In this document: piece by piece, positions 3,023 through 11,862 of the stretch
Layout: each line of letters begins with the position of its first letter
How positions within the stretch are numbered: position 1 is the stretch's first letter
NCBI RefSeq assembly: GCF_002954445.1
Contig: NZ_MQWA01000001.1
Location: forward strand, 2,696,192-2,712,458
Source: Rubritalea profundi
GTDB taxonomy: Bacteria; Verrucomicrobiota; Verrucomicrobiia; Verrucomicrobiales; Akkermansiaceae
DNA: 16,267 nucleotides
Reading direction: 5' to 3'
Translations under genes and position numbers: made by a program
The notes under the pieces: model-generated
Seen by the model: only the letters and a program-made list of their open reading frames with translations
What the model was told of the DNA's origin: nothing
Database searches by the model: none

Positions 3023-3952
3023 ATGTTTAAATTAACTCCTATGATTTATGGAGCCGCCCTGATGGCCGCTCCTATGGCTAGTGCAGATAGTTTCGGAACT
3101 GGGGGCAATGCCTTCACTATGGATTTTGTGAATATTGGAAACGCAGGAAATGTAGGGGACGGCACTGGCTACGGTTCTGTAGACAATAATTTCCGCATGG
3201 GGACGCACGAGGTGAGTGAGTCTATGATCGATTCTTACAATGCATTGAGTGCGGGTCCGGATATAACACAAAGTAACCGTGGAATGGATAGTCCATCAAC
3301 TAATGTGAGTTGGAATGAGGCGGCGCGTTTTGTGAACTGGCTCAACACCAGTTCTGGTCACAGTGCGGCTTACCAGTTCGATATTGCTGGGGGAAATGAT
3401 AATATAGCGCTGTGGGATTCTGGAGATGCCGGCTATGAAGCTAGTAACCGCTTCCGCAACAGCAATGCGCACTACTTCCTGCCGAGTGAGAATGAGATGT
3501 ATAAAGCCGCTTACTACGATCCGAACAAGTCCGGTGGGGCTGGTTACTGGGATTATGCAACAGGCAGTGACACAGCTTCTACTACCACGAGTGGTGGAGT
3601 AGCTGCTGGTACAGCGGTGTACAGTCAGTCAGGCCCCGCAGATGTGACCAAGGCTGGTGGTCTGAGTGCGTATGGCACGATGGGGCAGGGCGGCAATGTC
3701 TGGGAGTGGTCAGAGTCTGGCTATGACGCTTCAAATGACAGCGCAGCTGAGTCGCGCGTTTTCCGCGGGGGTGGCTGGTTCGACTACTCCCTCGCCCTGC
3801 AGTCGTCTACCCGCAACGGCCTCAGCCCGGGCCCTGAGAACAGCGCCATAGGTTTTCGAGTCGCAGCCGTGGCTGCGGTTCCAGAGCCATCGTCAGTGAC
3901 TTTGCTGGTATTAGGTGCCATTAGTCTTCTCATGCGTCGTAAACGTGGATAA
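3023..3952 (+). CDS. DGR variable (target) protein: secreted FGE-sulfatase/C-type-lectin-fold protein with C-terminal VR and PEP-CTERM sorting signal
   Basis: 309 aa with a signal peptide (MFKLTPMIYGAALMAAPMASA|DS). FGE-sulfatase-like motifs: SWNEAARFVNWLN, YFLPSENEMYKAAYY, GNVWEWSESGY, RVFRGGGW...IGFRVA. The C-terminus VPEPSSVTLLVLGAISLLMRRKRG has the PEP motif, a TM helix and a basic tail. The VR lies at codons 241-282. Confidence 0.9.
   Translation: MFKLTPMIYGAALMAAPMASADSFGTGGNAFTMDFVNIGNAGNVGDGTGYGSVDNNFRMGTHEVSESMIDSYNALSAGPDITQSNRGMDSPSTNVSWNEAARFVNWLNTSSGHSAAYQFDIAGGNDNIALWDSGDAGYEASNRFRNSNAHYFLPSENEMYKAAYYDPNKSGGAGYWDYATGSDTASTTTSGGVAAGTAVYSQSGPADVTKAGGLSAYGTMGQGGNVWEWSESGYDASNDSAAESRVFRGGGWFDYSLALQSSTRNGLSPGPENSAIGFRVAAVAAVPEPSSVTLLVLGAISLLMRRKRG
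3743..3866 (+). repeat. DGR variable region (VR)
   Basis: 124-nt ungapped match to 5503-5626 (offset 1760). There are 103 identities and 21 mismatches, and every mismatch sits opposite a TR adenine. Confidence 0.95.
3862..3877 (+). promoter_or_regulatory. GC-rich hairpin/cruciform at the 3' edge of VR (candidate DGR target-recognition element, next to the IMH-like invariant 3847-3866)
   Basis: CGCAGC-CGTG-GCTGCG forms a 6-bp stem with a 4-nt loop. The left arm is the last 5 nt of VR/TR homology. The right arm has no counterpart after the TR, where 5627 onward reads GCTCCAGG. Confidence 0.6.
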
Positions 3953-4035
3953 TATTACCCTTTTCCTCTTTGTCTCTTTTCCCTTTTCTTTAGAAGGGTA
4001 AAAGGGCTGAGGAGAAAGGCGAAATTTTCTGGAAT

Positions 4036-4066
4036 CGTGTCGGCGTAAGCCGGCGCGATTTTTTTT
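4036..4066 (+). terminator. Rho-independent terminator between the target gene and avd
   Basis: CGUGUCGGC-GUAA-GCCGGCGCG forms a 9-bp stem (two G-U pairs) with a GNRA-type loop. After one A comes a run of eight T (4059-4066). It ends 6 nt before the avd ATG. Confidence 0.75.
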
Positions 4067-4072
4067 AGTAAA

Positions 4073-4432
4073 ATGAAGATAGAAAAAGCAAAAGACCAGC
4101 CAGTGGTGCTGGTAAAGTGGTATGACTACACCAAGTGGGTGCTAGACCGTGTGGATGGCTTCCCAAAGAATCAGAGGTTTGTGCTAGGGACTAGGCTCGC
4201 GGATGCCGTGGTGCTGGTGGTCGAGCTGCTAGGAGAGGCTACCTTCTCTGAAAAGGGTAAGAAGCGTGAGCTTCTAGATCAAGCAAACCGTAAAATAGAG
4301 GTGGTGCGCTGGCTCATGCGCTTGGCATTGGATAGAAATCTGGTGAGTAAGAAGCAATTCCTCTTCAGCATCCAATCGCTAGAGGAATGCGGCAGGATGG
4401 TCGGTGGCTGGGCACGCTCAATCAAGCTGTGA
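4073..4432 (+). CDS. avd: DGR accessory variability determinant (Avd-like four-helix-bundle protein)
   Basis: 119 aa, basic and predicted all-helical. Resembles the four-helix-bundle/23S-IVS protein family (KWYDYTKWVLDRVDGFPKNQRFVLGTRL...). Sits immediately upstream of the RT, and its stop overlaps the RT start. Confidence 0.85.
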   Translation: MKIEKAKDQPVVLVKWYDYTKWVLDRVDGFPKNQRFVLGTRLADAVVLVVELLGEATFSEKGKKRELLDQANRKIEVVRWLMRLALDRNLVSKKQFLFSIQSLEECGRMVGGWARSIKL

Positions 4433-5469
4433 AGCGGCATAAACATTTATGGAACCAGGTTGCTAGCCTGAATAATCTAGTGGCTGCCGCACAGGCTGCT
4501 ATGTCAGGAAAGAGGACGGGAGCGAGTGGGGCTGCATTCTCAAATGTGTGGGAGACCGAGGTAGTGAAGCTAGAGCGTGAGCTGCGAACAGGTGAGTACC
4601 GCCCAGGCGAGTACCATTACTTTGAAATCCTAGAGCCTAAGAGGCGAATGATAGCGGCAGCGCCATTTAGAGATAGAGTGGTACATCATGCGCTGGTTAG
4701 GGTGCTAGAGCCGCTGTTTGACCCACGCTTTATCGAGGATAGCTATGCCTGTAGAACGGGCAAAGGAACCCATGCAGGAATGCGGAGAGCTTTATTTTTT
4801 AGTAAGCGCTACGCGTGGGTTCTAAAATGTGATATCCGGAAGTATTTCCCTTCTATCCGGCATGACTTGCTGCTGAGTAAGCTAGAGCGGGTGGTGGGGG
4901 ACAAGCAAGTGCTGAACCTGATAGCGCTGATCGTGGGATCACATTCTGAGACTGTGACCCAGGAATGGCGGAAGAATGGTAATTTATTTGATGTGAAAGC
5001 GGTGCGGTGGGGGCTGCCGATAGGGAACCTAACGAGTCAGTTCTTTGCTAATATCTACATGGATGCATTTGATCACTACGTGAAGCAAGGCATCCGAGTG
5101 AAGGGATATGTGCGCTATGTGGATGATTTCTTGCTGTTTGGAGAAGATAGGGCGGAGCTGCGTAGGATAGGTGAACGCTGCCACAAGTATCTAGAGGGTG
5201 AAGGGCTAGTGATACACCCTGACAAATACAGGATGTGTAGGACGGCTGATGGAGTGGACTTCTGTGGCTTTGTTCTGCGTGCTGATGGGCGTGTGAAGGT
5301 GCGCTCGGCTGGTGTGAGGAGATTTCAGCGAAGACTGAAGCAGATGCGCTACGAGGTGTCTCACGGTGATCTGGGGTGGAAGGAGGTTGGCGTATCCGTG
5401 AGATCATGGATAGCGCATGCCGAGCATGCGCAAAGTTGGCGCTTGCGTAGTAGGATACTGGGAGGCTAG
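4429..5469 (+). CDS. DGR reverse transcriptase (RNA-directed DNA polymerase)
   Basis: RT motifs present: LKCDIRKYFPSI, the DGR-typical LPIGNLTSQFFANIYM (IGxxxSQ), YVRYVDDFLLFG (YxDD), IHPDK and VDFCGF. The N-terminus (V)KRHKHLWNQV matches the usual DGR RT start. The likely GTG start at 4429 overlaps the avd TGA (GTGA). The longest ORF begins at 4387. Confidence 0.92.
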   Translation: MKRHKHLWNQVASLNNLVAAAQAAMSGKRTGASGAAFSNVWETEVVKLERELRTGEYRPGEYHYFEILEPKRRMIAAAPFRDRVVHHALVRVLEPLFDPRFIEDSYACRTGKGTHAGMRRALFFSKRYAWVLKCDIRKYFPSIRHDLLLSKLERVVGDKQVLNLIALIVGSHSETVTQEWRKNGNLFDVKAVRWGLPIGNLTSQFFANIYMDAFDHYVKQGIRVKGYVRYVDDFLLFGEDRAELRRIGERCHKYLEGEGLVIHPDKYRMCRTADGVDFCGFVLRADGRVKVRSAGVRRFQRRLKQMRYEVSHGDLGWKEVGVSVRSWIAHAEHAQSWRLRSRILGG

Positions 5470-5502
5470 ATTCTAGATTGTCGGGGCTTTCGGAGACTAA
5501 CG

Positions 5503-5626
5503 GCAGCTGAGTCGCGCGTTATCCGCGGGGGTAACTGGAACAACAACTCCAACAACCTGCAGTCGTCTAACCGCAACAACAACAGCCCGGGCAATGAGAA
5601 CAACAACATAGGTTTTCGAGTCGCAG
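5503..5626 (+). repeat. DGR template region (TR)
   Basis: Starts 33 nt after the RT stop and contains 38 adenines. Read in VR register it holds 13 AAC and 1 AAT codons (...GG N W N N N S N N LQSS N R N N N SPG N E N N N IGFRVA). It is the invariant partner of the VR. Confidence 0.95.
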
Positions 5627-5826
5627 GCTCCAGGATAGAGATACCTCCTAAAAGAGTGACTCTAGCTGAGCTCATGTTCACGGTGAGAACCGTAGTGGAC
5701 AAGTGTCTCTACGGCAGTGCCGCGCTCTGGAACCACCGGTAGCCCCAGAGCTGGGATGGGTAACCATTCTAGGTCAAATAAGAATAGGAAAAGGTATTGC
5801 GGTGAGTAAGCGATAAGCTGAAAGCC

Positions 5827-6066
5827 GTGATGCTTAGTGAATGTGAGAATTTTAAGATAGATATGAATGAGTCTGGAGGAAATGAGCGGTCAGAGAGCGA
5901 GGTGACTCGCCGGAGGCGCAGTAAGAGTGATAATCATAGTCAAGAGGATCAGTCTGAAATACGAGGTTGTGCTGTCGCGATTCTTGTGGTGGTGGCTCTG
6001 GTGTTAGGGGGAACTATATGCTATCTGGAGGCGAGGAGGAAGTGGTTGCCGATAGGCAAGTGGTAG
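5827..6066 (+). CDS. Hypothetical N-terminal fragment with one TM helix (probably the 5' part of the next ORF)
   Basis: 79-aa ORF with a charged N-terminus followed by the hydrophobic segment CAVAILVVVALVLGG. It overlaps the next ORF by 100 nt in another frame, with a GGGGG run at 6006-6010. Confidence 0.35.
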   Translation: MMLSECENFKIDMNESGGNERSESEVTRRRRSKSDNHSQEDQSEIRGCAVAILVVVALVLGGTICYLEARRKWLPIGKW

Positions 6067-6704
6067 CGTCGGCGATTGTTCAAAAAGAACCGAACGCTGA
6101 AGAGGTAGCGAGAGCATTTATCGCCGAGATAAATGTGGAGAAACGGCTGACAATGGTACGAAATAGGGAAGTGGTGAAAACGCATCTAAGCAGTTATACG
6201 GAAGAGGCGCTTAAAGAACCAGGTGTGGAGATCCGAGAAATGATGCGCAGGACTTTTGGAGACAAAGAGAGGACGTCTTATGCTGTGAGTTTTACCAGCG
6301 GTAGTCTACGGCTGCTCAATGTGCTAGAGACTGATGAGGGACCTAAGGTGGACTGGGATAGCTACGCACGCTACTGCTCTGTTAGCTGGGACACCCTAAC
6401 CAACGGGGAAAGTGTTGATCCAGCTCTCGTGCGGGTTTTTGTGCGACCAGGGAGTCATTACGCAGGTGAATACCTGGATCAAAAGAAGTGGCTGTGCTTC
6501 CAGCTAGAAACACCCGACTGTGGCGAGACTCTCTATGCCTACGGAAAAGTAGGTGAAGAAAATGCCGAGAAAATGAAGGAGATTGTGCTGCGAGCTAAGA
6601 ACTATCGACAGCACATGACTCTGGAGCTGGAGGCTAAGGGAAAGCTAGATGGCGCATGTCTGTTCGAGGTGAAGAGGCTTGTGACTGTTGGCTGGGTGGA
6701 GTAG
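6018..6704 (+). CDS. Hypothetical protein (no family recognised) adjacent to the DGR
   Basis: Long open frame (5967-6704 in the track, first ATG at 6018). Its CTA-Leu/AGR-Arg codon style matches avd and RT. Confidence 0.6.
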   Translation: MLSGGEEEVVADRQVVASAIVQKEPNAEEVARAFIAEINVEKRLTMVRNREVVKTHLSSYTEEALKEPGVEIREMMRRTFGDKERTSYAVSFTSGSLRLLNVLETDEGPKVDWDSYARYCSVSWDTLTNGESVDPALVRVFVRPGSHYAGEYLDQKKWLCFQLETPDCGETLYAYGKVGEENAEKMKEIVLRAKNYRQHMTLELEAKGKLDGACLFEVKRLVTVGWVE

Positions 6705-6726: not shown

Positions 6727-8313
6727 TCAACCGTGAGTGGGATGGGGCAGCTTATGGCTATCTAGCTCGATGACATCTTCCGCAAATTGGATGCCAGCCT
6801 GGGATTTTAGGCTCCACGCTTTGTCGATCCCTGCCGATTCTAAGGCTTGAGCTTGGTCGTCATAATCGGAAACTGCAAATCGTACAGCCCCCAGATGCTG
6901 GCTGAGTTTCGTAACCGCGATATTGGTTTCGTGGTCATGCATCGCCAATAGGAGCATTCTCACATTCCCTAGTGACAGGCGATGCCAGAATTCTTCATTC
7001 GTCGCGTCAGCTAGAATTACTTTGCGGTCGTTCTCTCTGTGCCCAGAGACAACAGACGAGTCAGTATCGACGCCCACTATAACCTCGCCAAATTCCTTAA
7101 CGAGCGTGTCGTAGGCTCCACAGCCAATGCTGGCCATGCCGATGATGACGATCTGAGTGGCGGTTGGTACGACAGCAGAATCCTCCTGTAGAATGTTATC
7201 AGATTGGTGGCTGTCGAACTTTGTTTTGTATCGGCTATAGATGGCGCGAGCGTGGTTGTTGAGTGGGGATGCGGCAATAAATGTGAAGGTGAGTGCCAGT
7301 GCTATAACCACCACCCAATCTCCGCTGAGCCATTGGTTGGCTAGGGCCACGGAAGCCACGATTAGGCCAAACTCACTGAAGTTTGCTAAATTGAACGAAC
7401 TCAGCACTGCCGTACGGGAGCGAAGCCTCAACTTGGTAAATAGCCAGAAGAATAGGACTACCTTCAGGACTGCTGCGAGGGCGAGTACGCTAGCTGTTAG
7501 GACTGTAGCGGTAGTGATCGAGCCAGACATGCCGATGCTCAAGAAGAAGCCGACAAGTAAGAGTTCCTTGAAGCTCAATAGCTTTTTAGCCATCGAGTTG
7601 GCAGAGGGGTGAGCCGCAAGCATTGCTCCAAAGATCAGCGCTCCAAGGTCTCCTTTCACACTGACTAACTCAAAGAGAAAGGCTCCGCCAAAGGCTATGC
7701 TTAGACCGAGTAGAGCCATCAGCTCACCATGGCCGACATCGCTCATAACTCGGAGCAGGAATCGACGCAATGGGATAAGTAAAATCAAAGCCAGCGCCCA
7801 CGGTGACGGCGCTTTACCTGTCGAAAGGGCAAGAAATAGGATAGCGAAGATATCCTGCATGACCAGTACGCCAATGGCGATCTGACCATGGCGGGAGCAC
7901 ATTTCTCCTTTTTCTTCCAAGGTCTTGATTGCAAAGACTGTACTGGAAAAACTCAGAGCAAAGGCGATCAGAATGGCTGTGGTGAAGCCTACGTCGACGA
8001 GCAGAGCAACACCTGTGAAGCTCATGCAGAAAATTGCGAGGCCAAACAGAGCCACCGTGACAAGCATGTGTAGTGAGGTTCCCGCCCAAATCACGGGTTT
8101 TAGCAAGGAACGAACATCGAGTTTGAGCCCGATGGAAAACAACAGGAGTGTCACACCCATGTTGCCGATGCTTGCTAGGTTCACGCTGTTGCCATCGACG
8201 AATAGATTTAGCAAGAAACCGCCCGCTAGGTAGCCAATCATCGGTGGTAGGCCGAAGCGGGTGGCGACCAAACCAAAAATGAGGGCTGGGCCGATCCAGG
8301 CTAAATCATTCAT
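6727..8313 (-). CDS. CPA2-family cation:proton antiporter with C-terminal TrkA-N/RCK domain (KefB/YbaL-like)
   Basis: Multi-TM Na+/H+-exchanger-like region followed by the Rossmann motif IVIIGMASIGCGAYDTL. The ORF is open to 8406. Starting at 8313 (MNDLAWIGPALIFG) avoids a 59-nt overlap with the upstream gene. Confidence 0.85.
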   Translation of the reverse strand: MNDLAWIGPALIFGLVATRFGLPPMIGYLAGGFLLNLFVDGNSVNLASIGNMGVTLLLFSIGLKLDVRSLLKPVIWAGTSLHMLVTVALFGLAIFCMSFTGVALLVDVGFTTAILIAFALSFSSTVFAIKTLEEKGEMCSRHGQIAIGVLVMQDIFAILFLALSTGKAPSPWALALILLIPLRRFLLRVMSDVGHGELMALLGLSIAFGGAFLFELVSVKGDLGALIFGAMLAAHPSANSMAKKLLSFKELLLVGFFLSIGMSGSITTATVLTASVLALAAVLKVVLFFWLFTKLRLRSRTAVLSSFNLANFSEFGLIVASVALANQWLSGDWVVVIALALTFTFIAASPLNNHARAIYSRYKTKFDSHQSDNILQEDSAVVPTATQIVIIGMASIGCGAYDTLVKEFGEVIVGVDTDSSVVSGHRENDRKVILADATNEEFWHRLSLGNVRMLLLAMHDHETNIAVTKLSQHLGAVRFAVSDYDDQAQALESAGIDKAWSLKSQAGIQFAEDVIELDSHKLPHPTHG

Positions 8314-8347
8314 GATGGCTATAGAAGATTGGGGGAGGGTGGAATGG

Positions 8348-9517
8348 TTAGCGAATGTTCGCTTTGGCCATTTCGTCGATAAGGACGTCGCGGAGTTCTT
8401 GCTCATCGAGGCCTCCAGTTTTACGCCAGACTACTGTGCCTCCTGGGGCAATGAGCAGAGTGTGCGGGATAGGGCCTTGCCATTTTGGATCGATCGCATT
8501 GGCCAGAGCTTCGAGGTCACCACCACGGTAATGGAAGTTGTTGGTCTTGCGTCCTTCTTTTTCCACAGATTTCTTGGTCCATCTGGCGAGTGGGAGGTGT
8601 TGTTCCTTGATGAAGCTTGAAACTGAATCCGCATCTTTCTTAGGATCAATCGAGATAGTGATGAGTTCAAACGGACGCAGAGAATGGCGTTGGTAGGTTT
8701 CTACCAGCATTGGAAACTCAGCGACACAAGGACCACAGCTGGTCGACCAGAGATTGATGAGGCGCATTTTTCCAGTGTCGTTTTTAGCGAGCTTCGTGGC
8801 GAGTTCTACATCGATAGCTTCAACGGAGATTGGAAGGGCATTCCATTGCTTATTGTATTGATCGACGAGTTCAGACTTTCCCTTCCACTTAGTGGAGCAA
8901 CCGAAGACGCGGGTCTTAGCTTCAGGAACGGGCTTTCCTGCTAGAAGTGCATCCATCGTATTGAGGACGGTTTTCTTTTTCGCTGGACCTGGGTCGCGCT
9001 TGGCGTCGTCAAAATGTCCTTGGTAGAGGAGCTTTCTCTCGGGACCGAAGATGAAGACGTGGGGTGTGGCGACTGCTCCGTAGGCGATTGAGGCCGTCTG
9101 ATTTTCGCCGTCGTAGAGGTAAGGGTGTGACAGCTCGTATTCTTTTGCCACGGCTTTCATTGATTTAAAGTCGTCGTTGTACTTTGAGTAGGCATTCTCC
9201 CAGATCTGGACGCCGGCCATCGACGCGCTGGAGATTGCTACGACCTCGACTCCTTTATCCGCGTAGTCTTTTGCGAACTGGTTGACCTTACCACGCGCAG
9301 CTATGGCGTCAGGGCAGTGATTGCAGGTAAAGACAGCGACAAGGTACTTAGCATCTTTAAAGGAGTTGAGTGTGTAGATTTTGCCATCGGTGGCTGGGAG
9401 TGAGAAATCCGGGGCTGATGCGCCGATTTCTAATGTGGTCACATTCTGAGGTGCCGCAGTGGCTGAAAATGTGAGACTAGCTACCGCGATTATTGCGGTG
9501 AGTGGTTTGGTGATCAT
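8348..9517 (-). CDS. Secreted two-domain thioredoxin-fold protein (AhpC/TSA-redoxin domain plus TlpA-like domain)
   Basis: 389 aa with a signal peptide (MITKPLTAIIAVASLTFSATAAP). Two CxxC centres are present: FTCNHCPD and WSTSCGPCVAEFP. Confidence 0.8.
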   Translation of the reverse strand: MITKPLTAIIAVASLTFSATAAPQNVTTLEIGASAPDFSLPATDGKIYTLNSFKDAKYLVAVFTCNHCPDAIAARGKVNQFAKDYADKGVEVVAISSASMAGVQIWENAYSKYNDDFKSMKAVAKEYELSHPYLYDGENQTASIAYGAVATPHVFIFGPERKLLYQGHFDDAKRDPGPAKKKTVLNTMDALLAGKPVPEAKTRVFGCSTKWKGKSELVDQYNKQWNALPISVEAIDVELATKLAKNDTGKMRLINLWSTSCGPCVAEFPMLVETYQRHSLRPFELITISIDPKKDADSVSSFIKEQHLPLARWTKKSVEKEGRKTNNFHYRGGDLEALANAIDPKWQGPIPHTLLIAPGGTVVWRKTGGLDEQELRDVLIDEMAKANIR

Positions 9518-9572
9518 AGTGGGTAGTTAATTAAGTTAGCTTAATGACTTGGGCCAGAAACATGTTCTTCGC

Positions 9573-9597
9573 GGGTGATTATGTATAGTAATCACCC
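9573..9597. promoter_or_regulatory. Perfect 9-7-9 inverted repeat in a divergent promoter region (candidate operator)
   Basis: GGGTGATTA-tgtatag-TAATCACCC. It lies 56 nt from the redoxin start and 79 nt upstream of the rpsN ATG. Confidence 0.35.
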
Positions 9598-9675
9598 AGC
9601 TAGAAGGAAGAACTTCAGAAAAAGACCAAAAATGTCTTGATTGACGAGAGGTTCTAGATACACATCGCAATCCCT

Positions 9676-9944
9676 ATGGCAAAGAAGAGCTGGATCGCGC
9701 GGAACGAGCGCAAAAAGAAAACTGTAGCTAAGTATGCGAAACTTCGTGAGCAACTTAAGCAAGACAAAGATTATGTTGGACTAACTATGCTTCCACGTGA
9801 TGCATCGCCAACACGCGTTGTAAACCGTTGTGAGTACACAGGACGTCGTCACGGTTTCCTACGTCGCTTTAAGCTTTCTCGTATTGCTTTCCGCGAACTT
9901 GCATCACACGGGATGATCCGGGTGTTACCAAGTCCTCTTGGTAG
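9676..9944 (+). CDS. rpsN: 30S ribosomal protein S14, long non-zinc (C-minus) form; frame broken by an apparent 1-nt loss at ~9918
   Basis: MAKKSWIARNERKKK...LPRDASPTRVVNRCEYTGRRHGFLRRFKLSRIAFRELASHGMI, after which the tracked frame diverges. Restoring one C (atc ccg ggt) gives PGVTKSSW and a stop at 9942-9944, the canonical S14 C-terminus (89 aa). Confidence 0.9.
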
Positions 9945-9982
9945 TCGGCACTACAGTGCTATAGACACAAATTTTTTATAAG

Positions 9983-10015
9983 CGTGAGATGGTGAGATAC
10001 CCATCTCACGTTTTT
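9983..10015 (+). terminator. Rho-independent terminator after rpsN
   Basis: Perfect 10-bp stem CGTGAGATGG/CCATCTCACG with an 8-nt loop, followed by TTTTT. Confidence 0.85.
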
Positions 10016-10054
10016 ATGTTTATTTTTGTCTACGTTATCACCCATACTTAGAAT

Positions 10055-10315
10055 ATGCCTTTATACGAATACATATCCAAATCTGCCGGTGTAGCTGGTA
10101 AGAGTTGTCGTATGTGTTCTAAAGGTTTCGAGCTAAGACGACCAGTGGATAGAGCCCCTTTGGAGGTTTGCCCACTTTGTAAACACCCAGTGAAAAAAGT
10201 GATCAGTCTGACTAATACCCCGACCATCACCAAACCAATGTCCACTATTGATGCGAAGAACGCTGGATTCACAGTTCTTGAAAAACGTATTGATGGAAAC
10301 TACGAAAAATTGTAA
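10055..10315 (+). CDS. FmdB-family zinc-ribbon protein (CxxC...CxxC)
   Basis: 86 aa with the MPLYEY N-terminus typical of the family. Cysteine pairs: CRMC and CPLC. Confidence 0.75.
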   Translation: MPLYEYISKSAGVAGKSCRMCSKGFELRRPVDRAPLEVCPLCKHPVKKVISLTNTPTITKPMSTIDAKNAGFTVLEKRIDGNYEKL

Positions 10316-10410
10316 ACGGTTGGAATTCCAACAACTGGGTTGATAGGACATCAACCACTCCCAGCGACTGCCAGAGATTCAAAGAACCACCATGGCAGTT
10401 GTGATCGCTA

Positions 10411-11862
10411 ATGAATACACTAGAAATTGAGCCTTACAGTATGATGCTGCAGAGTAGTCTGCAGCTATTATCCTCCGCCACGACAGAGATCCCCACAGAG
10501 TGGCCATCGGTGACTTATACCGTATTTTTTGTGCTTGGGTGCGTGTTCTTTCTCTTGCTTAATGCATTTTTCGTGGCATCTGAATTCGCCATCGTCAAAG
10601 TGCGCCCTAGCCAGATTGATACGGCTAAAAAAGATTTCCCAGAGCGCGCAGCAAAGGCGCGTAAGATTGTTGATAATTTGGACGGCTACTTGTCTGCTAA
10701 CCAGCTGGGAATAACGATAGCTTCATTGGCACTAGGTCTTTTGGCTGAGCCTTATATCGCGGGAGTGCTGAACTACCTCCTGTTGAATCGTTTTTATGAA
10801 TGGACTGATGGCACAGTGGATCTACGTGAGTATCAGAGGTTTATTGGCGGTCTATCCTACTTCACAGCGCTGGCTCTGTTCACTGTGCTTCACGTGGTGA
10901 TTGGTGAGTTGATTCCGAAGGCGATCGCTATCCGCAAGCCATTAGAGACTACTCTAGCGCTGTCTAGGTGGTTGGATTATTTTTTCCTAGCCTTCTATCT
11001 ACCTATCAAATGGCTCAACGGGCTGGCGAATATCGTGTTGAAGAGGGTTTTCAAAATTGATCCATTGAGTGAGGCCGAGCACGCGCATAGCTCTGAGGAG
11101 TTGGCCTTGCTGGTAGAGGAAAGTGAGAAGAAGCATGAGGTTACGGAAACTGAACGCGAGATTCTGATCAATGCTCTGGAGCTCAATGATGTTTATGTGA
11201 AGGACGTCATGACGACCCGCAGTGATGTGGTGGCTCTCGATGTTGATGATTCTTTCCGTAAGAATCTCGATATTGCAAATCATACGAAGCACACACGGTT
11301 TCCTCTGATCAAAGGGCATCTCGACAATGCTATTGGCTTGATTCATATCAAAGATTTGTTGCGTTTCTCACACGATGATCAACCAGATTTGATGACGGTG
11401 AAGCGCGAGCTAAAGGTGGTTCCAGAGACTATGCCGCTCGATGTGTTGCTCAAATTCTTCCTTAAAGAGCACGCGCATTTGGCGATGGTCGTGGATGAAT
11501 TTGGTGATCCCGCTGGCCTAGTTTTCCTCGATAACGTGATCGAGGAGCTGGTTGGCGATATTCAAGATGAGTTTGACCAAGAGGTGAGCTCATTCACCCG
11601 TGTCAATAAAAGCGAATTCGTGGTGGAGGGCTCACTCACGCTCAATGAGCTTTCGGACCACGAGCCGAGAATTGCTTTGAATAGTAACGAGGTCACCACT
11701 GTCGGTGGTTACATCACTCAGCAGATGGGGAGAATCCCTGAACCTGGTGAAATCTGTGAAGTCGAGGGCTTTGAAGCGCGTGTGACCAGCACTGATGGCC
11801 GACGTGTCAGCCAAGTACATTTTAGGAAACTGCCAGAGCCTGAACCTGTTGAGGCAATCTAG
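10411..11862 (+). CDS. HlyC/CorC-family transporter (CNNM/DUF21 TM domain, CBS pair, CorC_HlyC domain)
   Basis: 483 aa. The TM region carries the ASEFAIVKVR and GELIPKA motifs. The central CBS pair includes VKDVMTTRSDV. C-terminus: TVGGYITQQMGRIPEPGE... Confidence 0.85.
   Translation: MNTLEIEPYSMMLQSSLQLLSSATTEIPTEWPSVTYTVFFVLGCVFFLLLNAFFVASEFAIVKVRPSQIDTAKKDFPERAAKARKIVDNLDGYLSANQLGITIASLALGLLAEPYIAGVLNYLLLNRFYEWTDGTVDLREYQRFIGGLSYFTALALFTVLHVVIGELIPKAIAIRKPLETTLALSRWLDYFFLAFYLPIKWLNGLANIVLKRVFKIDPLSEAEHAHSSEELALLVEESEKKHEVTETEREILINALELNDVYVKDVMTTRSDVVALDVDDSFRKNLDIANHTKHTRFPLIKGHLDNAIGLIHIKDLLRFSHDDQPDLMTVKRELKVVPETMPLDVLLKFFLKEHAHLAMVVDEFGDPAGLVFLDNVIEELVGDIQDEFDQEVSSFTRVNKSEFVVEGSLTLNELSDHEPRIALNSNEVTTVGGYITQQMGRIPEPGEICEVEGFEARVTSTDGRRVSQVHFRKLPEPEPVEAI

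Follow-up and report, generated by a model that had tools for sequence, protein, structure and literature searches.

The diversity-generating retroelement (DGR) of phage BPP-1, arranged mtd-avd-TR-brt, carries a template repeat (TR) whose sequence is transferred, with changes specific to adenines, to a variable repeat (VR) in the gene for a tail-fibre protein. Within the BPP-1 ribonucleoprotein, a duplex between TR and the Spacer RNA (Sp) presents the priming nucleotide, Sp A56, and is followed by a second duplex between the segment upstream of TR and Sp, the 'cPRT Stop' duplex (bioRxiv 10.1101/2023.10.23.563531). RNA elements of this kind were predicted in 207 of 278 DGRs containing an accessory variability determinant (Avd) and are conserved across taxa (bioRxiv 10.1101/2023.10.23.563531). 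Among cellular systems, the Treponema denticola DGR is chromosomal, diversifies the lipoprotein TvpA and has an HRDC accessory gene, a cassette classified as architecture C (Wu et al. 2018, PMC5758913). The same survey names the order avd, reverse transcriptase (RT), TR as architecture B2 and finds that proteins related to formylglycine-generating enzyme (FGE), the FGE-sulfatase/CLec1 group, form the largest class of DGR targets (Wu et al. 2018, PMC5758913). Here we describe a locus within a 16,267-nucleotide stretch of the genome of Rubritalea profundi (Verrucomicrobiota, Rubritaleaceae; contig NZ_MQWA01000001.1, positions 2,696,192 to 2,712,458; hereafter the window), which we read, with a probability of about 93%, as a functional, chromosomally resident DGR of architecture B2 (target, avd, RT, TR). 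The analysis demonstrates its component parts, a mismatch pattern specific to adenines, activity in the recent past among natural strains and a conserved RNA structure.

The R. profundi locus resembles BPP-1 in combining Avd with a bRT-like RT, in adenine-specific transfer from an AAY-rich TR, in a target of probable C-type-lectin fold (suggested here by PF03781 and a fold match to TvpA) with VR near its C-terminus, and in a structured RNA 3′ of TR that is predicted to form both a TR-end:Sp helix and an upstream:Sp duplex. It differs in gene order, TR and the RNA following the RT instead of separating avd from brt, and in being a cellular element with a presumably secreted FGE-type target, whereas BPP-1 is phage-borne. 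In addition, its 3′ RNA is longer (~210 nt versus 140 nt, with no detectable sequence similarity) and it lacks a conserved GC hairpin after VR. Like the Treponema element it is chromosomal and has an FGE-sulfatase-type target, of putative C-type-lectin fold, without catalytic residues; unlike that element it contains Avd only, follows the B2 order and ends its target in a PEP-CTERM tail. B2 DGRs with category 'b' FGE-sulfatase/CLec1 targets match it in the order of their genes, in having avd as accessory gene, in the class of target and in being chromosomal (PMC5758913), but the R. profundi VR is not at the extreme C-terminus, being followed by 28 codons that mostly encode the PEP-CTERM signal. 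No mention of a DGR target composed of VR plus PEP-CTERM was found in the searchable literature, and neither a report linking PEP-CTERM or exosortase to DGR targets nor any relevant paper on R. profundi was found in the searchable open-access literature. An earlier note on this DNA had correctly read the order as target-avd-RT-TR and had contrasted it with that of BPP-1, but it is the common B2 layout; the emphasis of the note on the housekeeping chromosomal context was likewise misplaced, as Wu et al. (2018, PMC5758913) place 70-90% of DGRs in chromosomes.

The four co-oriented parts and uninterrupted open reading frames (ORFs) described in the earlier note were all present (Table 1). Its ORF map matched ours, while the likely starts moved to 3041 or 3062 for the target and to a GTG at 4429 for the RT. 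Alignment of TR with VR was gapless at an offset of 1760 over 124 nt, and all 21 mismatches fell at TR adenines (21 of the 38 adenines in TR; hypergeometric P = 7e-11, computed on a 127-nt stretch that includes three extra non-A flank mismatches). This alignment also upheld the proposal of a 124-nt TR beginning 33 nt after the RT stop (5469), and no ORF of at least 80 aa in the ORF list of the window covers it. Read in the VR frame, TR contains 14 AAY codons and no codon that an A-to-N change could turn into a stop, giving a theoretical repertoire of ~10^20 protein variants; VR specifies 14 residues that differ from those of TR, all within codons 247-275. Self-comparison of the window yielded this one A-biased pair only, with no second VR or remote target within the 16 kb.

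Table 1. Features of the R. profundi DGR locus, in window coordinates
Feature	Position	Strand	Details
Target gene	3041-3952, probable start (longest ORF 3023-3952, 309 aa; alternative start 3062)	+	PF03781, VR, PEP-CTERM tail
VR	3743-3866	+	124 nt; codons 241-281 of the 309-aa target ORF
PEP-CTERM sorting signal VPEPSSVTLLVLGAISLLMRRKRG	3875-3943 (aa 285-307)	+	PF07589, TIGR02595
Terminator-like hairpin	4031-4070	+	14-bp stem + T8; consensus scan; between target stop and avd ATG
avd	4073-4432	+	119 aa; accessory variability determinant
DGR RT	4429-5469, probable GTG start, 346 aa (longest ORF from ATG 4387, 360 aa)	+	bRT-like
Upstream segment GGGGCTTTCGG	5483-5493	+	Predicted to pair with 5736-5746; putative equivalent of the BPP-1 'cPRT Stop' duplex
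TR	5503-5626	+	124 nt; non-coding; same sequence in both strains
Conserved structured RNA, apparent Sp equivalent	5626-5835 (~210 nt)	+	Directly 3′ of TR; covariation
3′ RNA helices	5626-5632/5728-5734, 5691-5699/5705-5713, 5714-5715/5719-5720	+	RNAalifold
3′ RNA helices, continued	5748-5757/5766-5775, 5792-5803/5824-5835, 5809-5811/5817-5819	+	RNAalifold

A sister allele of the locus was found on metagenome contigs L082-L084, of which L082 aligns with the window over 9,949 bp at 99.56% identity. The two sequences differ at 44 positions: 27 within the 124-nt VR, none within TR and 17 in the other 9.8 kb. Divergence between the strains is therefore 22% of positions in VR versus 0.17% elsewhere (Fisher p ~1e-41 for enrichment in VR), with TR 100% conserved. 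VR polymorphism, which the earlier note had proposed as a check, was thus assessed with two strains, and 25 of the 27 differences were located at TR-adenine sites. Because the sister strain differs in VR at these sites and not in TR, the comparison shows that mutagenic homing has taken place since the two strains diverged and that the element was recently active. Substitution in at least one of the two alleles has affected 29 of the 38 TR adenines, and the substituted positions all lie within 3761-3848. The last 18 nt of VR (3849-3866) are the same as TR in both alleles and never mutated, and constitute a candidate initiation of mutagenic homing (IMH) site. A GC-rich palindrome absent from TR (GCAGCC-GT-GGCTGC, 3862-3875, 6-7 bp) begins at the last bases of VR. 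However, a VR-proximal cruciform like that of BPP-1 was rejected as a defined part of the element, relatives having no conserved hairpin after VR, and the palindrome may be a mere by-product of coding for Ala-Ala-Val-Ala-Ala. According to Wu et al. (2018, PMC5758913), just 34% of DGRs have an inverted repeat after the IMH. The flanks of TR are more structured than those of VR (mean folding energy -6.5 versus -2.4 kcal/mol).

The DGR was found to extend beyond its four parts, reaching past 5626 to ~5835. RNAalifold analysis of this region in 16 relatives gave 40 base pairs in six helices, with compensatory changes in 32 of the 40. A search with a covariance model (R1) detected the RNA at a total of 58 related loci, 27 from the 80 genome loci plus the window, together with 31 from the 80 metagenome loci; all matches were on the RT strand and adjoined TR wherever the position of TR was cross-checked, and non-seed loci from other phyla were included. 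In a 30-sequence alignment, 94.3% of cells were able to pair, compared with ~40% when partners were slid by 1-3 columns, and covariation was seen in 37 of 40 pairs, figures that are somewhat inflated because this alignment was fitted to R1. No Rfam family matched the 3′ RNA at E <= 1. Judged by this covariation, the RNA is evidently under purifying, structure-preserving selection, and by analogy it looks equivalent to the BPP-1 Spacer RNA.

The first helix of the 3′ RNA (5626-5632/5728-5734) begins precisely at the end of TR/VR homology, and its 3′ strand is directly followed by A5735, which is near-invariant and unpaired. By comparison with BPP-1, A5735 is a candidate for the priming nucleotide, in which case cDNA synthesis would be primed in cis there or at an adjacent position and the first templated nucleotide would be ~5625. 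Support for the duplex between the upstream segment and Sp came from RNAduplex calculations across 16 loci, where cognate combinations had a mean energy of -21.3 kcal/mol versus -15.1 kcal/mol for non-cognate combinations (permutation p ~5e-5). The column-wise test of the same duplex was weaker (76.9% paired versus 42-64% when slid), its support being only moderate because an internal loop aligns poorly.

The earlier note had described a 119-aa Avd-like gene encoding a four-helix bundle, and profile searches bore this out. The protein scored above the cutoffs of the curated equivalog NF033474 DivGenRetAVD (81.9 bits, cutoff 80) and of PF22296 bAvd (53.5 bits, cutoff 40), and matched phrog_3206, the PHROG family 'Avd protein of DGR' (E 4e-17). 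Its sequence equals that of WP_105043605.1, which RefSeq already calls 'diversity-generating retroelement protein Avd'. A single-sequence AlphaFold model contained four helices and had its top PDB matches in the pentameric four-helix-bundle family, with bAvd (4DWL) ranked third at a TM-score of 0.60-0.65; a phmmer search of Avd against PDB sequences gave no match. The RT most likely starts at the GTG at 4429, overlapping the avd stop as GTGA, a start preferred because most homologues and the RefSeq protein WP_165788809.1, to which the RT is equal, have 346 aa. RTs of the DGR clade carry an [I/L/V]GxxxSQ motif plus YxDD. The sequences IGNLTSQ and YVDD, singled out in the earlier note as diagnostic, aligned to the same motifs in bRT, and the RT matched phrog_1423 with an E value of 4.7e-112.

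The target is 100% identical to R. profundi WP_105043604.1, named in RefSeq as a SUMF1/EgtB/PvdO family nonheme iron enzyme. A search with PF03781 (FGE-sulfatase), as suggested in the earlier note, gave a match at E 1.6e-16 that covers aa 84-281 and spans VR. All three sister-strain contigs contain a 1-nt deletion at 3040 that throws the ATG at 3023 out of frame, making the 309-aa RefSeq start doubtful; the start is most likely 3041 or 3062. Either of these leaves a short signal-like peptide without a basic N-region. The N-terminus is hydrophobic and, as judged from the sequence itself, signal-peptide-like, ending in ASA|DS. At the other end of the protein, the sorting signal scored 22.4 bits against PF07589 (cutoff 20.7) and 19.3 bits against TIGR02595 (cutoff 16). 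The same kind of tail was present in 103 of the 119 closest target homologues, which are mostly unnamed metagenome proteins, with named ones from Akkermansiaceae, Haloferula, Rubritalea marina and Chthoniobacterales. No exosortase (EpsH/Xrt) gene was found in the window.

Catalysis by FGE needs a catalytic cysteine pair or metal ligands. The 309-aa translation contains zero cysteines; because cysteine is entirely absent the target is not a catalytic FGE, and an identity as formylglycine-generating enzyme was ruled out. The phmmer match to pFGE/SUMF2 was limited to the C-terminal scaffold. The AlphaFold model of the target had an overall pLDDT of 71.5, and its top PDB match was the Treponema DGR target TvpA (2Y3C, E 1.5e-6, TM-score ~0.5, with the VR segment at pLDDT 40-50). 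Argued from these resemblances, the target is most likely secreted, processed by an exosortase and located at the cell surface, where it would bind ligands with variable specificity. This agrees with the earlier note, which had taken the element for a cellular one whose target is secreted or surface-exposed.

Paralogues of the target were also seen on a 15.5-kb contig (L165), where five tandem genes (6792-11646) encode proteins of 306-331 aa that all carry a PEP-CTERM tail and a VR region of hypervariable appearance. The contig was checked for avd, RT and TR and showed none, and paralogue arrays can thus exist without an adjacent DGR. These genes may be remote DGR targets or a DGR-independent array.

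Could the RT instead belong to a group II intron, a retron or a defence system, and the repeat pair be coincidental? The top NCBIfam match by score was indeed the group II RT/maturase model TIGR04416 (E 8.8e-41), and JGI annotates homologues as 'retron-type RT'. However, that match reached 140 bits against a cutoff of 300, and the retron and defence RT models also fell far short, Retron St85 at 52 bits (cutoff 235) and Drt2 and Drt3a at 53-56 bits (cutoffs 200-390). The closest solved relative was the BPP-1 DGR RT (8ub7, E 1.5e-41, 146 bits), 60 bits ahead of the best group II intron RT structure (2e-23, 86 bits) and far ahead of retron RTs too, in keeping with the clade assigned in the earlier note. 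Scanning all of the window against Rfam at E <= 1 gave no match, hence no group II intron or retron RNA. In addition, translation of the RT gene is coupled to that of a genuine Avd, and TR comes next. A non-DGR origin for the RT is accordingly scarcely credible. A DGR carried by a phage or other mobile element, left in a prophage remnant and diversifying a receptor-binding protein, is also very improbable. In its favour, the M23 peptidase domains encoded at 52-1086 occur in phage proteins too, and the cassette moves, since its neighbourhoods differ between Rubritalea and Oceaniferula. Against this, no capsid, tail, integrase or terminase gene was found in the 16 kb, the flanks hold core metabolism and ribosomal genes and are collinear in the sister strain, and the apparent signal peptide and PEP-CTERM tail of the target belong to a cellular sorting system. 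Furthermore, the best RT relative among 2.9 million viral contigs was 36-37% identical, whereas relatives in cellular metagenome-assembled genomes and metagenomes reached 50-70%; their sources were Oceaniferula, Opitutus, Victivallales, Planctomycetota, Acidobacteriota, Desulfobacterota and Poribacteria. By these sequence relationships, the RT lineage is cellular.

A further alternative is that the element is a decayed or domesticated relic, with the differences between strains in VR arising from ordinary mutation, recombination or selection. Several observations weigh against a functional DGR and some of them favour a relic. Activity was deduced from two alleles only, from strains rather than reads, and the isolate genome and the window share one of these alleles. 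Of the 27 differences in VR between the strains, two (3760 T>G and 3765 G>T) lie opposite TR bases other than adenine. There is no distinct IMH/IMH* difference inside the repeat, the GC palindrome shows no conservation among relatives, and confidence in the target model is low across VR. Finally, the terminator-like hairpin before avd obscures the source of an avd-RT-TR transcript. A relic is nevertheless very unlikely: all ORFs are intact with their catalytic motifs, TR is unchanged between strains that differ so strongly in VR and almost only opposite TR adenines, and the cis-acting RNA appears to be selected for its structure. The two exceptional positions face a TR thymine and a TR guanine, respectively, and adjoin adenine sites; they arose either by ordinary mutation or because the RT misincorporated opposite a base other than adenine.

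If the functional DGR works as BPP-1 does, an analogy that supplies the priming site, the helix roles and retrohoming as well as exosortase processing and ligand binding, its transcript would consist of the upstream segment, the 124-nt TR and the ~210-nt 3′ RNA, bound by a complex of Avd and RT. The 3′ RNA would fold back so that its first helix abuts the last templated nucleotide, and the second duplex (5483-5493/5736-5746) would close the template. Synthesis of cDNA, cis-primed at or beside A5735, would then run 5′-ward through TR with random misincorporation opposite adenines. The mutagenised cDNA would replace VR, changing as many as 14 AAY codons together with a small number of other codons but never creating a stop, and leaving TR unchanged. 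The target, a catalytically dead FGE-type protein of putative C-type-lectin fold, would be exported by its signal peptide and presumably passed to an exosortase. It would then either stay displayed at the cell envelope or be set free from it, binding ligands with variable specificity.

Expression of these parts may be uneven. The hairpin between target and avd ends 3 nt before the avd ATG, and an equivalent hairpin and T-run with compensatory changes lies just upstream of avd in five related loci (L001, L004, L005, L002 and L092). One hypothesis is that the target is transcribed alone while avd, RT and TR are expressed by read-through, so that mutagenesis is rare. A sigma-70 scan of the plus strand gave nothing resembling a promoter ahead of either the target or avd, with a consensus that may not apply to Verrucomicrobiota.

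Among 164 related loci, A-biased TR/VR pairs were detected in 91. In most of the loci with a visible pair TR was close to the RT stop, while in a minority, including Chlorobiaceae, it lay between avd and the RT. The Oceaniferula locus (L001) contains the same cassette of PEP-CTERM target, avd, RT, TR and 3′ RNA, followed by unrelated genes (GNAT, UbiE, aminotransferase). Because this neighbourhood differs, the chromosomal site of the cassette is not constant from genus to genus. These comparisons raise the possibility, to which we give slightly less than even odds, of an undescribed large family spanning Verrucomicrobiota in which a DGR diversifies a PEP-CTERM/exosortase-sorted lectin, the ~210-nt 3′ RNA with its candidate priming A5735 is shared, and a conserved single-pass membrane protein (gene X) accompanies the targets even without a nearby RT. 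If such a family exists, the hypervariable tip would sit just before the sorting signal, and homing signals would have to lie inside coding sequence.

As a DGR the element is conceptually nothing new, its architecture and target class being common and its Avd already annotated. Three aspects are modestly new: the 3′ RNA delineated by covariation, the family of targets with PEP-CTERM tails and an unknown gene that accompanies target genes. Since the element sits in a cultivated marine verrucomicrobium and natural allele pairs already show activity, it is a convenient cellular representative of the avd-RT-TR type, which is abundant yet has been little studied. The 3′ RNA provides a testable model of cis-priming for elements in which TR follows the RT, and could be the starting point of an RNA family used in annotation. 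The PEP-CTERM link hints that in Verrucomicrobiota the exosortase pathway displays lectins varied by DGRs, which would join two systems whose natural ligands are unknown.

The genes around the cassette encode an M23 peptidase, class I fumarate hydratase, Kef-type antiporter, AhpC/TSA-thioredoxin, S14, CNNM/CorC, PspC, a DEAD helicase, 3-keto-disaccharide hydrolase and RF3. The ordinary chromosomal flanks without phage or integrase genes reported in the earlier note thus held across 16 kb, and the GC content of the cassette is not distinct from that of its flanks. Gene X (5830-6704), just downstream of the DGR, encodes one transmembrane helix and had no match in Pfam, NCBIfam or PHROG. It is split in the window by a frameshift in a G-run at ~6005-6009 (G5 versus G6), and forms a single 291-aa ORF in the sister strain (L082:5874-6749). 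A homologue was not found after the cassette in L001, L089 or L139; one follows the DGR cassette in L086 (3621-4217), and another follows the five-paralogue array in the DGR-less L165 (11982-12854; 41% identity, E 3e-52). The association of gene X thus seems to be with the target family, not with the RT. Lastly, the AhpC/TSA-thioredoxin fusion is one 389-aa ORF in the window (8348-9517), whereas the corresponding gene in L082 (8393-9562) is called as two genes (202 and 172 aa); a T>A difference at position 9001 of the window coincides with this split.

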